DNA of 61,891 bases from Thermoplasmatales archaeon SG8-52-3 (GCA_001595915.1 LSSG01000053.1:69416-131306), one strand, 5' to 3'; counted from the first letter of the stretch, positions 3,756-48,117 are shown. Notes: generated by a model not told the origin, from the letters alone. Translations and numbers: made by a program.

Positions 3756-6065
3756 ATGAACAATAAAAAAATTTCAATATTTATTTCAATTATATTTTTA
3801 ACAACAGCAATATTTGCAAATGGAATAAGTAGTAAATCCTTTGAAAATGAAAAATTAATATTAGTAAGAATCTTAACAGATTATAATAATTTACCAAGAG
3901 ATTTTGAAATAATTAGTATTCAACCAAATCAATGGATTGAGGTTATTATCACAAATAAACAAATCCACTATTTAGAGGACAATAATCTATTTTATGAAAT
4001 ATTAATTGAAGACATAATAGAATATGAAAACACTATTAGAGGAGAATACCATACTTTAGCAGAAATAGAATCTATTCTTGAAAACATAGCAGATAATTAT
4101 CCTGACATTACAAGTCTTTATAGCATTGGAACAACTTATGAAGGTAGAGATATTTGGTGTTTAGAAATTACTGATAATCCTGGAGTTGATGAAGGTGAGC
4201 CAGGTGTTTTTTTTATGGGACTACACCATGCTCGTGAATGGCCAACTGTTGAGATATGTCTATACGTTGCTAATCAATTAACATCTAAATATGGGTCTGA
4301 TCCTTCAATTACTAATATTGTCAATAACGTAAGATTATGGCTTGTTACATGTGTAAATCCTGATGGCTATTATTATTGTCATGATCAAGGTCATGATTGG
4401 CGTAAAAACCGTCAACCCTATTCGCCTTACATTGGTGTGGATCTTAATCGCAATTATGCAGGATCATCAAATGGTGATCCCTGGGGTTCATGGGGATCGG
4501 TAGATTCTGGATCAATTAGCAATCATCCTGATTCTGAAGTTTATTGTGGACCCTGGCCTTTCTCTGAATACGAAACACAAGCAATTAAAGATATATTCAT
4601 TAATAATGATATATCTGCTGCTATAAGTTGGCATACTCATGGAGAACTCGTTTTATGGCCATGGGGTTACTCATTTGAAAATGCTCCTGATACAGATTAT
4701 TTATCCCAGGTTGGCCAGCAAATCGCATCAAGAATCACTCGTCAGAGTGGAAGCGGAACTTATACACCACAACAAGCAGCTAATTTGTATCCTACAACTG
4801 GTGATACAATAGATTGGGCATATGGATATGGACATTATGTTTTGGGAAGACCTACATTTGCCTATACGATTGAGACTTGTTCAACTTTCCATCCATCTGA
4901 AGGTTATCTTGACCAAGTTTGTAAAGAAAATTTTGATGGCGCACTATATATCTTAGAGGAAGCTGAAAATATTAAAGATACAGTTTCAAAACGGGTAATA
5001 CCGCCAGTTATTGACGATATGGACGAAGATTCAGATGGAGATTATAATATTACCTGGGTTGAGCAAAATCCAAATGCTAATCCAACATTTTTTCAATTAG
5101 ATGAACTTACGGGTTTATCATTATCAACAGATAACGCTGAATCTGGAACAGATCAGTGGACTATTGAAGGTTTTACAATTTCTACTTCAAAATATCATTC
5201 ATCAAGTCATAGTTATAAATCTAGATATAAAGACCAAGATGTTTCATCCATGGTTACGGTAAATCCTATACCAATTAGTGTAGATATGAATCTAACATTT
5301 TGGTGTTGGTATGATATTGAGCAAGATTATGATTACGCATTTGTTGAAGTAAGTAGAGACGGGCGCATTTTTGATGTAATCGATAAATATACTGGTACAT
5401 CAGATGGTTGGGTTAACAAGAAATATTCCCTTGATGATTATATTGGTGATTCAATTTTTATCCGTTTAAGGTATATAACTGATGATTATACTCAAGAAGA
5501 AGGATTTTATGTTGATGATATCTATCCCATCGCTGAATTTGATATGGTAAATACGCTATCAGATACTATTACTGATAATTTTTATGAGATTTTTGATAAA
5601 CCTCAAGGTACATATTACTATCGAGTTAGAGGATATAATTCTGATTATGAGTGGGGAGACTTTAGTACAATTGAAGATATTGTTGTAAGTTTTGCTGGTG
5701 CACCAGAACAACCAGATATTGAAGGTCCAATAGAAGGAAAACCTGGAATAGAATACAACTATAGTTTTGTAACAAATGATCCAGAAAACGATGATGTTTA
5801 CTATTATATAGATTGGGGAGATAATCAGTTGGAAGAATGGATTGGTCCATATCAATCTGGTGAAGAAATAATTAAGAGCCATTCATGGAATGAAAAAGGT
5901 ACATATATCATTCAGGCTAAAGCAAAAGATACTTCTGAACATGAAAGTAATTGGGAAACATTTGAAGTAAAAATTCCGCGATCAAGACTTTTATCAAAAA
6001 TATATTTATTAGACCTTTTATATAAGATTCTATTAAAACTACCAATTTTTAATAATCTAAATTAA
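3756..6065 (+). CDS. Secreted M14 zinc carboxypeptidase with beta-sandwich, FN3-like and PKD-like domains and IPR tail
   Basis: Signal peptide; HHAREW, RKNR, GVDLNRN, WHTHG, TIE motifs; YYIDWGD PKD-like domain; ends KIPRSRLLSKIYLLDLLYKILLKLP. Confidence 0.9.
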   Translation: MNNKKISIFISIIFLTTAIFANGISSKSFENEKLILVRILTDYNNLPRDFEIISIQPNQWIEVIITNKQIHYLEDNNLFYEILIEDIIEYENTIRGEYHTLAEIESILENIADNYPDITSLYSIGTTYEGRDIWCLEITDNPGVDEGEPGVFFMGLHHAREWPTVEICLYVANQLTSKYGSDPSITNIVNNVRLWLVTCVNPDGYYYCHDQGHDWRKNRQPYSPYIGVDLNRNYAGSSNGDPWGSWGSVDSGSISNHPDSEVYCGPWPFSEYETQAIKDIFINNDISAAISWHTHGELVLWPWGYSFENAPDTDYLSQVGQQIASRITRQSGSGTYTPQQAANLYPTTGDTIDWAYGYGHYVLGRPTFAYTIETCSTFHPSEGYLDQVCKENFDGALYILEEAENIKDTVSKRVIPPVIDDMDEDSDGDYNITWVEQNPNANPTFFQLDELTGLSLSTDNAESGTDQWTIEGFTISTSKYHSSSHSYKSRYKDQDVSSMVTVNPIPISVDMNLTFWCWYDIEQDYDYAFVEVSRDGRIFDVIDKYTGTSDGWVNKKYSLDDYIGDSIFIRLRYITDDYTQEEGFYVDDIYPIAEFDMVNTLSDTITDNFYEIFDKPQGTYYYRVRGYNSDYEWGDFSTIEDIVVSFAGAPEQPDIEGPIEGKPGIEYNYSFVTNDPENDDVYYYIDWGDNQLEEWIGPYQSGEEIIKSHSWNEKGTYIIQAKAKDTSEHESNWETFEVKIPRSRLLSKIYLLDLLYKILLKLPIFNNLN

Positions 6066-6135
6066 AAATTATAAAAAAATAAAATAATATTTACATCATT
6101 AATACTCTTATTTTTTCTATAGAAAAATTTATTAT

Positions 6136-6149
6136 TTAACAATTGTTAA
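6136..6149 (+). promoter_or_regulatory. TTAAC-N4-GTTAA palindrome downstream of TATA
   Basis: TTAACAATTGTTAA right after AAAATTTATTA. Confidence 0.7.
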
Positions 6150-6178
6150 CTTTTAATTAAATTAAGGAGATATAAACT

Positions 6179-45949: not shown

Positions 45950-45967
45950 TGTTATATTTTTAACAGA

Positions 45968-45985
45968 TTGTTAACATTTAAATAT
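45968..45985 (+). promoter_or_regulatory. Variant TTGTAACA-TATA promoter
   Basis: TTGTTAACATTTAAATAT; overlaps a TTAAC-N5-GTTAA palindrome (45960..45974). Confidence 0.6.
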
Positions 45986-46023
45986 CTTAACTCAGATTAT
46001 TTTACTGGAGAAGGTAACTGATT

Positions 46024-48117
46024 ATGAAAATAAAAATTCATATGTTTTTAACAGTGATATTAATCTGCATTGGACTAATTGTAACAAATACGACCAGTAG
46101 TTTTAATTTCAAATCTAAAAAAAATATCGATGAAGAAGTAATTTCTGTATTAGTTTATCTAAAAGATCAAGTTGACCTAGATTCTATTAACATTAAAATG
46201 AATAAACAGAAAGCATCTCTTAGAGAGCGTCATGAGACGATTGTTTTAGCACTTCAAAATACTGCATCTGCTTCTCAAGCTCAACTACTTAAATATTTAT
46301 TTGAGTTGCAGGACCAAGATATTGTTAAAGAAGTTCAATGTTTTTGGATTGGCAACATTATTCGAGTTGATACCTATCAAAGTATGATCGATAAAATCGC
46401 TAAAAGAGATGATGTCTATAAGATATATCCTAATTATCAGATTGATTTAATCAAACCCCGCAAGGAAAACAATGAAATTAAGCTAAGTAATCGAAGTGAT
46501 ATTGAACCTGGTGTTGTAGCTGTTAGGGCTCCAGAGGTTTGGGAGGAATTTAATATAACTGGTGAAGGTGTACTTGTGGCAACAATTGATAGTGGAGTTG
46601 ATGGTGATCATCCCGCACTTGCTGGTAGATGGGCTGGAATAGCTGATCCTAGATATGAAGGTCATCCTGAGTGGGCATGGTTTGATCCATATGCTTATCA
46701 AAATGATTTTCCATATGATCTTAATGGTCATGGTACCCATACTATGGGTATTGTTTGTGGTGGTTCTCCTGGTGATCAAATTGGTGTTGCACCCGGTGCT
46801 TTATGGATATCTGCTGGGCTTATTCAAACACAGGATATTCCTCAATTTGTTTCAGATGCAATTGAATCATTTGAATGGTTGATTGATCCTGATGGAAATC
46901 CTGAGACTAATTGGGATGTTCCAGATGTTTGTTCAAATTCGTGGGGATTATATGAGCCACTTGGTTATCCTCAATGTGACGAAACATTTTGGACTTTCCT
47001 TGATGCTTGTGAATCAGCAGGAATTGTGATAATATTTATTGCTGGAAATGAGGCCTATAGTGGTTTACGTAGCCCTGCTGACAGAGCTATTGATGATTAT
47101 CGCACTTTTTCAGTTGGAGCAGTTGATGCAAATGATCCTGACTGGCCAGTTTGGATTTGGTCGTCTAGAGGTCCCACATATTGTACTCCAAATGGTAGCG
47201 AAGCAATTAAACCAGATATTGCAGCACCTGGAGTAAATATACGTTCATCGATACCTGGAGGTAGTTATGAATCTTATTCTGGTACTTCAATGGCTGCACC
47301 ACATGTTAATGGTGTTGTAGCATTAATGCGTGAAGTTAATCCAAATATTAGTGTAAAATCAATAAAAGAAATAATTTATCAAACAGCCTTTGACCTAGGT
47401 GACTTGGGTGAGGATAACGATTATGGTTGGGGGATGATTGATGCTTATGAAGCAGTTTTAATTATAGGTCAATCGCCTACAATACCTGAATTAACTGGCC
47501 CAACAAGTGGAAAGCCTGGGGAATCTTTGGAATTTTTATTAAATTCGACAGATCCAGATGGAGATGATATATATTATTTCGTTGACTGGGATGATGATAC
47601 ATCAAGTGAATGGATTGGTCCGTATTCATCTGGTGAAGAGGTAAATGTGAGTCATATCTGGGAAAATCCTGATACATATGAAATCAAGGCAAAATCAATG
47701 GATTTTACCTATGCTGAAAGTGACTGGTCAGAGCCGTTAATAATTAATATCACAACTAAGTCACCAGATCCACCTAGAATTAATGGTCCAACAAGAGGAA
47801 AAAAAGGGGTGTTTTATAATTTTACATTCAACTCTGTAGACCCAGATGGTAATGATGTATATTACTATATTATATGGGGAGATGGCTCTGAAAAAGAATG
47901 GGATGGTCCACATCCTTCTGGTGTAGATTTCGTTATTTCTCATTCCTTTCCAACAATTAAAACATTTACTATTGAAGCAAAGGCTAAAGATATTTCTAAT
48001 GCCGAAAGTAATTGGTCTAGTTTTGATATAACTATTCCACGAACAAGAACAACATCGTATCTATGGTTTCTGGAGCTTTTCCCATTGCTGGAAAGACTTC
48101 TGAACATAATTTTTTAA
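46024..48117 (+). CDS. Secreted S8 subtilase with prodomain, two PKD-like domains and IPR tail
   Basis: TIDSGVD, GHGTHTMG, SGTSMAAP triad; ends [24 protein letters not shown]. Confidence 0.92.
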   Translation: MKIKIHMFLTVILICIGLIVTNTTSSFNFKSKKNIDEEVISVLVYLKDQVDLDSINIKMNKQKASLRERHETIVLALQNTASASQAQLLKYLFELQDQDIVKEVQCFWIGNIIRVDTYQSMIDKIAKRDDVYKIYPNYQIDLIKPRKENNEIKLSNRSDIEPGVVAVRAPEVWEEFNITGEGVLVATIDSGVDGDHPALAGRWAGIADPRYEGHPEWAWFDPYAYQNDFPYDLNGHGTHTMGIVCGGSPGDQIGVAPGALWISAGLIQTQDIPQFVSDAIESFEWLIDPDGNPETNWDVPDVCSNSWGLYEPLGYPQCDETFWTFLDACESAGIVIIFIAGNEAYSGLRSPADRAIDDYRTFSVGAVDANDPDWPVWIWSSRGPTYCTPNGSEAIKPDIAAPGVNIRSSIPGGSYESYSGTSMAAPHVNGVVALMREVNPNISVKSIKEIIYQTAFDLGDLGEDNDYGWGMIDAYEAVLIIGQSPTIPELTGPTSGKPGESLEFLLNSTDPDGDDIYYFVDWDDDTSSEWIGPYSSGEEVNVSHIWENPDTYEIKAKSMDFTYAESDWSEPLIINITTKSPDPPRINGPTRGKKGVFYNFTFNSVDPDGNDVYYYIIWGDGSEKEWDGPHPSGVDFVISHSFPTIKTFTIEAKAKDISNAESNWSSFDITIPRTRTTSYLWFLELFPLLERLLNIIF

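Follow-up and report, generated by a model that had tools for sequence, protein, structure and literature searches.

A portable C-terminal tail on exported proteins of one archaeal family, with a predicted helix-turn-helix fold and a possible role in cell-surface retention

Why should a carboxypeptidase, two subtilases, a pair of thioredoxin-like proteins and several proteins with unrecognizable heads all end in the same thirty or so residues? This question is raised by a 61,891-nucleotide stretch of DNA from Thermoplasmatales archaeon SG8-52-3 (GCA_001595915.1, LSSG01000053.1:69416-131306; hereafter the window, in which positions are counted from the first letter and genes are called by their lower coordinate). 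The window has a G+C content of about 30% and an archaeal gene content, in which numerous genes for secreted proteins are mixed with housekeeping genes (those for aIF5B, V-ATPase subunit I, a proteasome subunit, FttA, SRP54, RIO kinase and NOG1). Thirteen genes (3756, 6179, 7491, 15032, 16206, 29998, 33358, 34910, 36646, 39897, 41387, 42553 and 46024) had been predicted to encode signal-peptide proteins with a common C-terminal module, and our open reading frame (ORF) calls recovered all of them at the coordinates given. In each of the thirteen ORFs, a K/R-rich N-terminus leads into a hydrophobic, signal-peptide-like stretch, and the C-terminal part consists of a PKD-like W(G)DG domain, an [IM]P-R motif (K-P-R in 36646) and a tail of 26-33 residues. 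We propose, with moderate confidence, that this tail, some 30 residues long, is a portable module by which exported proteins are retained noncovalently at the cell surface.

The tail is by no means confined to this locus. We called ORFs across the assembly (1.9 Mb in 84 contigs, about 79% complete) and iterated a hidden Markov model (HMM) of the tail, spanning 34 positions, to convergence: It matched 71 ORFs with E-values down to 2e-15, and in 70 of these the match lay 0-12 residues from the stop codon. A hydrophobic signal is clearly recognizable at the N-terminus in 60 of the 70. Of the other ten, several start less than 250 nucleotides from the edge of a contig, and in the remainder the start may have been called wrongly; none of the 70 contains any other transmembrane-like segment. 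Because some more diverged tails were missed by the HMM, the actual number is nearer 75-80, i.e., roughly 4-5% of the genes. When the same profile was run against 1.84 billion representative proteins, it gave 377 matches with E<=1e-3. Of the 150 strongest, 149 stop no more than 10 residues short of the C-terminus, and the sole non-terminal one (P0089) is a TPR-repeat false positive. Recurrence on this scale is far beyond chance, and the strictly C-terminal position on signal-peptide proteins that had been anticipated is borne out within the genome and globally alike.

The original prediction treated the PKD-like domain, the P-R motif and the tail as one module, and of this proposal the tail has stood but the PKD domain as an obligatory part has not. 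A PKD match precedes the tail in all thirteen window proteins at E<=0.1 (a weak but consistent Pfam signal, which exceeds the cut-off in several of the full-length proteins), and a PKD domain precedes it in most proteins elsewhere; but on other contigs it may instead follow a CARDB-like beta-sandwich (..CEIDVYLKTPRSR..), a right-handed beta-helix (..NPR..) or another immunoglobulin (Ig)-like domain. With four kinds of domain found in front of it, the tail is a module in its own right, and the P-R motif belongs to it and not to the PKD domain. The PKD assignment is strengthened, and the boundary located, by a solved structure: The PKD domain of gene 3756 is closely homologous to that of an M14-like peptidase in PDB 4XED (E 7e-35). 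The crystallized construct of the latter runs only as far as ..VTMPK, where the tail would have its IPR, so that the tail lies outside the solved structure. One PKD-ending protein on another contig (C70:5519-7912, minus strand) keeps ..INIPRNK and then continues into an unrelated end of 24 residues (DGIQKYQVTTNSHETVVKLPRTI); here the tail has been lost or replaced.

A position profile of 180 tails, aligned on their central proline, P(0), shows how narrowly the sequence is constrained. Upstream of the center are P(-18) in 84%, R(-17) in 84% and [RK](-15) in 82% of the tails; immediately before it stand E/D(-3) (91%), R(-2) (72%) and F(-1) (91%); and hydrophobic residues at -9, -8, -5 and -4 are conserved along with L(+2), L/I(+5) and L(+6). 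The distance from the P-R motif to the central proline is exactly 18 in 152 of the 180 tails. Two subtypes are set apart by a four-residue insert (..ERFPNxFPILRxLLGL versus ..ERFP-MLERLLxLL), and a third, the HP variant (..FLESHPNMFPLLQKLLQRLGLF), is found in homologs of 16206. The tail is amphipathic, with an i, i+1, i+4, i+5 periodicity, rich in W, Y and F, and flanked by basic residues; the median tail has four basic and two acidic residues, and across tails, the Kyte-Doolittle score of the most hydrophobic 19-residue window has a median of 0.90 and reaches 1.61 at most. Because such values fall far below those of membrane-spanning segments, the tail is not a transmembrane helix, as had been surmised from its charged residues and proline. 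For the last 120 residues of 16206, modeled by AlphaFold2 together with 31 aligned modules, the PKD sandwich has a predicted local distance difference test (pLDDT) score of 96-98 and ends at ..IIIPR, the linker scores about 69, and two helices (residues 98-106 and 110-118, pLDDT about 80) are joined by an FPN turn. The tail is thus predicted to fold as a linker followed by a helix-turn-helix hairpin. By its profile, hydropathy and predicted helices, it has the properties of an in-plane amphipathic anchor, i.e., a hydrophobic face, flanking basic and aromatic residues, and too polar a composition to span a membrane. At the same time, the conserved E-R-F-P and the fixed 18-residue spacing hint at a defined structure or a specific partner, not mere greasiness.

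Could the tail be a form of some known C-terminal signal? Searches of Pfam and NCBIfam with the last 99 residues of the thirteen proteins returned nothing but PKD; no CTERM family in NCBIfam (TIGR04126, NF033507, NF045529 and others) matched any of the thirteen tails at E<=1; and full-text literature searches yielded no account of it, such that the tail appears to be publicly undescribed. The same NCBIfam library does recognize the genome's own sorting systems. An archaeosortase A of 309 residues (TIGR04125, 105 bits against a cut-off of 75; contig C32:81181-83453, minus strand) is encoded in a row with the genes for archaetidylserine synthase (PssA) and decarboxylase (PssD), an artA-pssA-pssD arrangement that has reportedly been described in haloarchaea. 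(The C-terminus of this archaeosortase, ..KGPFERLLEKVWRKI, bears a faint likeness to the tail motif, probably by coincidence.) About eleven proteins of the genome end in (T/S)PGFE, a transmembrane segment and RRK, and match NF045529 and NF033507 (Heimdall- and Loki-CTERM) above the cut-offs; the hydropathy of these ends is 2.4-3.5 in a 17-residue window, compared with the tail's maximum of 1.61 in a 19-residue window. An archaeosortase-like protein of 191 residues bearing the TIGR04178 signature (contig C66:9269-10272, plus strand) is followed by a 92-residue protein that ends in IPIFPG, a transmembrane segment and KKRKEK, and the two are possibly a dedicated single-substrate sorting pair. About a dozen more secreted proteins end in plain transmembrane anchors, including a contrast case within the window, a 1426-residue secreted propeller protein (55873..60153, plus strand) with an ordinary C-terminal transmembrane helix and basic cluster and no tail. 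Given that the genome's own archaeosortase A and PGF-type ends are recognized by NCBIfam and the tail is not, the tail system is separate: It constitutes a third, and by far the most numerous, C-terminal ending in this genome, and the claim that it lies outside the known archaeal CTERM pattern survives this comparison.

In its general habit the tail nevertheless resembles PGF-CTERM and its kin (PEF-, Loki- and Heimdall-CTERM). Like these signals, it is short and portable, forms the very end of many unrelated Sec-exported proteins, occurs in dozens of copies per genome, is restricted to a lineage and follows Ig-like stalk domains. Unlike them, it has no transmembrane helix directly after the signature motif, a helix-turn-helix following P-R-x-[RK] instead, and its basic residues lie upstream in that motif, not in a cluster at the very end (which reads ..LLGL or ..LLNLL).

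The lineage restriction is pronounced. Among 401 genomes sampled evenly across the phylum, the tail model was found in 35 genomes of the window's own GTDB family and outside it in only two, both borderline (E about 9e-4), and a model of the HP variant was found in 23 genomes, all of that family. The tail is lineage-specific, as originally proposed. Within the family, a broadened model applied to the genomes of 108 species was positive in 89. Each of four genomes of the window's own genus has at least 73 matches, genera g165, g21 and g170 have 25-73 per genome, and the rest of the family has 0-33. Several family genomes that scored negative carry diverged tails, and clean presence/absence profiling within the family is therefore not possible.

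The only match in this genome that is not C-terminal offers a clue to what the tail might do. It lies in a DUF4382 (PF14321) protein (contig C38:38674-39378, minus strand), in which the signal peptide, a linker of some 20 residues, ..IRPFRFNLFSWFFERFPNAFPMVKYIL.. and a beta-sandwich follow one another; its gene adjoins one for a 760-residue protein with multiple transmembrane segments. The 631 homologs of this protein at E<=1e-5 come in two forms. Long forms (226-237 residues) have the hairpin (ERFPNAFP), some with an extra C-terminal PKD domain, and AlphaFold2 predicts the same helix-turn-helix in the long form; short forms (173-174 residues) have a signal peptide whose end is a lipobox, ..LLSGC, directly ahead of the same (Q/K)EGTG domain start. 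The closest long-form relatives have IPK-x-[KR] at the canonical 18-residue spacing, but most long forms lack the P-K-x-K motif. The genome studied here encodes the long form; G442 and G443, which belong to its genus, encode the short one, and G420, from a different genus, encodes both. Because lipobox and hairpin occupy the same place, the lipid anchor and the hairpin would seem to be interchangeable. That the hairpin here sits at the N-terminal end of the mature protein also argues against any mechanism that requires C-terminal processing. We considered whether DUF4382 proteins might serve as a general receptor for the tails, a role rejected on their distribution, since they are detectable in just 39 of the 108 family genomes.

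If the tail were cut or transferred by a dedicated enzyme encoded elsewhere, as had been suggested, such an enzyme might be expected to follow it across genomes. Archaeosortases are unlikely as tail processors: ArtA has approximately eleven plausible PGF-type substrates, the small archaeosortase-like protein has its 92-residue tripartite neighbor, and matches to the exosortase family extend to genera in which tails are scarce or absent. C25 peptidases cut after Arg or Lys, and PorU is a member of this family. Every one of the 108 family genomes encodes them, most with at least 16 copies and tail-poor genera included, but so do 97 genomes outside the family, and two sister families without tails (f3 and f6) each have 16-37 first-look C25 candidates. 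The C25 peptidases, including the one encoded in the window, thus gain no specific support as an Arg-specific tail processor or tail-specific sortase, since a distribution that does not follow the tail offers no discrimination; it speaks neither for nor against a specialized C25 paralog. Among the archaeosortases and C25 peptidases, and with clean profiling within the family not possible, no processing enzyme for the tail emerged.

The abundance of C25 peptidases, together with an Ig-like domain at the C-terminus of secreted hydrolases, also recalls type IX secretion. The C-terminal domain of that system, however, is itself a beta-sandwich that is addressed to an outer-membrane translocon, and this archaeon presumably has no outer membrane. 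Nor did the last 99 residues of the thirteen proteins match Por_Secre_tail, and the window's own C25 (gingipain-family) peptidase, a secreted protein without a tail (25478..27946, plus strand), scores 57 bits against a PorU cut-off of 420.

Many of the tail genes appear to be regulated together. The palindrome TTAAC-N4-GTTAA occurs exactly at window positions 3721, 6136, 7448, 16165, 28821, 34847 and 52380 and with one mismatch at 38680, which places it 35-63 nucleotides upstream of the starts of 3756, 6179, 7491, 16206, 34910 and 38715. Across the genome there are 47 exact sites, where shuffled sequence would give about 9. The 47 include 37 that lie no more than 160 nucleotides upstream of a gene start, and at least 22 of the 37 are ahead of genes with a tail or hairpin, including the DUF4382 gene (13 nucleotides upstream of its start); others precede tail-less C25 peptidases and other secreted proteins. 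By its placement, the palindrome looks like the shared operator of an exoproteome regulon.

From the anatomy, position, abundance, taxonomic range and predicted fold established above, we infer a retention function and a binding partner for the tail. Sec export and removal of the signal peptide would come first, and a role for the tail as an export signal, which had also been entertained, finds no support, its bearers already carrying Sec-type signal peptides. The basic P-R-x-[RK] and the two short amphipathic helices (..LFERF - P(NxF)P - ILRxLL..) would then grip the cell envelope noncovalently, either in the membrane interface or on an envelope component specific to this archaeal family, and peptidases, other exoenzymes and their products would thereby be kept beside the cell. 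Retention is the best fit to the association with exported proteins, the mutual exclusivity with other anchors, the amphipathic, aromatic and basic chemistry, and the lipobox swap in DUF4382 proteins; the last of these, along with the exclusivity, lends indirect support to the part of the original prediction that concerned surface anchoring. In E. coli, anchors of the PBP5/PBP6 type hold an exported enzyme on the outer face of the membrane noncovalently by a C-terminal amphipathic helix. The tail likewise sits at the C-terminus of Sec-exported enzymes, is amphipathic and non-transmembrane, and is rich in basic and aromatic residues, but it differs in having two helices around a conserved proline turn, a conserved polar E-R and a fixed upstream P-R, and in occurring on about 70 proteins genome-wide as opposed to one enzyme family. 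In the DUF4382 family the hairpin takes the position of the lipobox cysteine, which implies the same end result, membrane retention; relative to a lipobox, the tail would be a peptide-based, noncovalent anchor, and it is usually found at the opposite end of the protein.

Several observations weigh against retention. The P-R-x-[RK] motif is strongly conserved at a flexible domain boundary and at a fixed spacing, and so resembles a processing site. The DUF4382 swap demonstrates an equivalence of position and not of function, and the two forms co-exist as paralogs in G420; moreover, helix 2 of the long form runs into a stretch more hydrophobic than that of the C-terminal tails, and may anchor differently. 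Tail counts differ widely across the genera of the family, from 0 to at least 73, and no binding partner emerged.

The resemblance to a processing site is the starting point for an alternative in which the tail is a true sorting signal, whose hairpin is read by a dedicated enzyme (an Arg/Lys-specific clan-CD peptidase acting like PorU, or a membrane protease) that cuts near P-R-x-[RK] and either releases the protein or attaches it covalently to a lipid, a glycan or the S-layer. The strong conservation of P(-18) and R(-17), at 84% each, and of their spacing (152 of 180 tails) speaks for such a signal, as does the location of the motif in the lower-confidence linker right after the last PKD strand, where the 4XED construct ends; C25 peptidases are at hand in all 108 family genomes, with at least 16 copies in most, and some of their genes share the upstream palindrome with tail genes. 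Yet the tail has neither a transmembrane helix nor a tripartite layout, archaeosortase A and its small archaeosortase-like counterpart both have plausible substrates of their own, and C25 peptidases are equally abundant in the tail-less families f3 and f6. In DUF4382 proteins, the hairpin precedes the domain, so that cleavage at P-K-x-K would not remove it, and most long forms do without the motif. On balance we regard a true sorting signal as unlikely. Since many of the bearers of the tail are peptidases and the motif at the domain border is dibasic-like, the tail could also be a C-terminal pro-peptide, i.e., a folding aid or an inhibitor removed on activation; but it is found on non-enzymes and on a bare PKD domain as well, one or more Ig-like domains stand between it and the catalytic domain, and in DUF4382 proteins the hairpin is N-terminal, all of which make this explanation highly improbable.

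A different class of explanation takes the hairpin as a means of recognition among proteins. Two amphipathic helices of nine residues cannot bury their own hydrophobic faces, and the conserved polar E-R suggests protein-protein recognition, so that the hairpins might bundle with each other or with a scaffold into cell-bound multi-enzyme complexes, much as dockerins do with cohesins. A protein that consists of nothing but signal peptide, PKD domain and tail (39897) and the palindrome shared by many tail genes, indicative of co-regulation, would both suit such an assembly. No scaffold with repeated receptor domains was found, though, and DUF4382 proteins, limited to 39 of the 108 family genomes, are not a general receptor; we think docking distinctly improbable. 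More generally, the ERFP hairpin may be the address tag of an undiscovered sorting or attachment pathway that is confined to this archaeal family and read by a dedicated receptor or enzyme, an idea that we hold to be possible but doubtful. Its reader would recognize the helix-turn-helix and P-R-x-[RK] at the 18-residue spacing and would attach as much as 4-5% of the proteome to the envelope, or set it free in a controlled manner. If this were true, it would be the first prokaryotic C-terminal sorting system without a transmembrane segment.

Noncovalent retention remains the reading under which we describe the individual tail genes, whose heads are as unrelated as the original prediction held: M14, S8, thioredoxin-like CxxC, propeller-like and unmatched heads were all recovered, and DUF7901 is to be added to them. 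Gene 3756-6065 encodes the M14 carboxypeptidase, and its tail (5976..6062, plus strand; PRSRLLSKIYLLDLLYKILLKLPIFNNLN) is a degenerate copy directly downstream of the PKD domain. The thioredoxin-like CxxC proteins are encoded by 6179-7393 (tail 7298..7390, plus strand; PRTRQNYNYLFNLLLEKFPNLYLILKQLIKI) and 7491-8963 (tail 8868..8960, plus strand; PRSINPHKTIFEILFDRFPNAFPILRQILGL). DUF7901 is the head of 16206-17273, whose tail (17178..17270, plus strand; PRARSVYHPLVVRLFERFPNVFPILRQLLGL) is of the canonical long type and is the copy modeled by AlphaFold2; a paralog of this gene is 33358-34449 (tail 34363..34446, plus strand). The S8 subtilases are 29998-32124 (tail 30001..30087, minus strand) and 46024-48117, with a tail of the short type (48037..48114, plus strand). 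The short type is also seen in 41387-42505 (tail 42422..42502, plus strand) and in 42553-44754 (tail 44656..44751, plus strand), the latter with a repeat-rich, propeller-like head; in a Pfam scan neither of these heads had a match, nor did that of 15032-16072, a gene of unknown head type (tail 15977..16069, plus strand). Gene 34910-36631 has its tail at 36530..36628 (plus strand), and 36646-38574, the K-P-R variant, combines this motif with a short-type helix 2 (MLERLL; tail 38485..38571, plus strand). The minimal protein, of 151 residues (39897..40352, plus strand; tail 40263-40349), starts 3 nucleotides past the stop codon of a tail-less secreted thioredoxin-like gene (38715-39893). Beyond the thirteen, the variant tail that had been noted in 61213-61734 is indeed there (61216..61332, minus strand; ..NRSSRDNFYNNFLQNDFFKKIIDRFLLLKVFLSIIEISR), after an Ig-like domain; it is degenerate, falls below the HMM threshold and is recognized by visual similarity only. 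For tail proteins outside the window, cargo classes were judged from visible motifs only.

Recent shuffling of a cassette of PKD domain and tail among these genes can be rejected, as DNA identity between modules is no higher than 69%. The gene 38715-39893 (plus strand) and 23726-25081 (minus strand) are both thioredoxin-like secreted relatives of 6179 and 7491 without a tail, and hence natural tail-less paralogs; 23726 has a central PKD domain and, as called, no signal peptide, so that its start may have been placed wrongly. Two neighboring serine recombinase genes with Resolvase and Recombinase domains (13172-13987 and 14092-14841, plus strand), located between two blocks of tail genes, may be the remnant of a mobile element. 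Two divergently transcribed paralogs (27976-28668, minus strand, and 28909-29616, plus strand) have signal peptides, a common ..IPFYDYETF(F/L)G.. core and no Pfam match, and the TTAAC-N4-GTTAA palindrome sits in the intergenic region between them.

An HMM of the tail would fill a gap in annotation pipelines, and the tail itself would offer a compact, non-transmembrane anchoring peptide for tractable archaea and, through pull-down, a handle on its envelope component. Its wider interest lies in the ecology of its bearers. Thermoprofundales (MBG-D) are among the most abundant archaea of marine sediments and are thought to live on detrital protein by means of extracellular peptidases (PMC6461988, PMC6752024). 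A tag on about 70 exported proteins per genome would provide a sequence-based list of the cell-bound exoproteome of an uncultured lineage; and since whether exoenzymes are free or held at the cell decides who gains from hydrolysis, such a list would bear on how enzyme assays of sediments are to be read.

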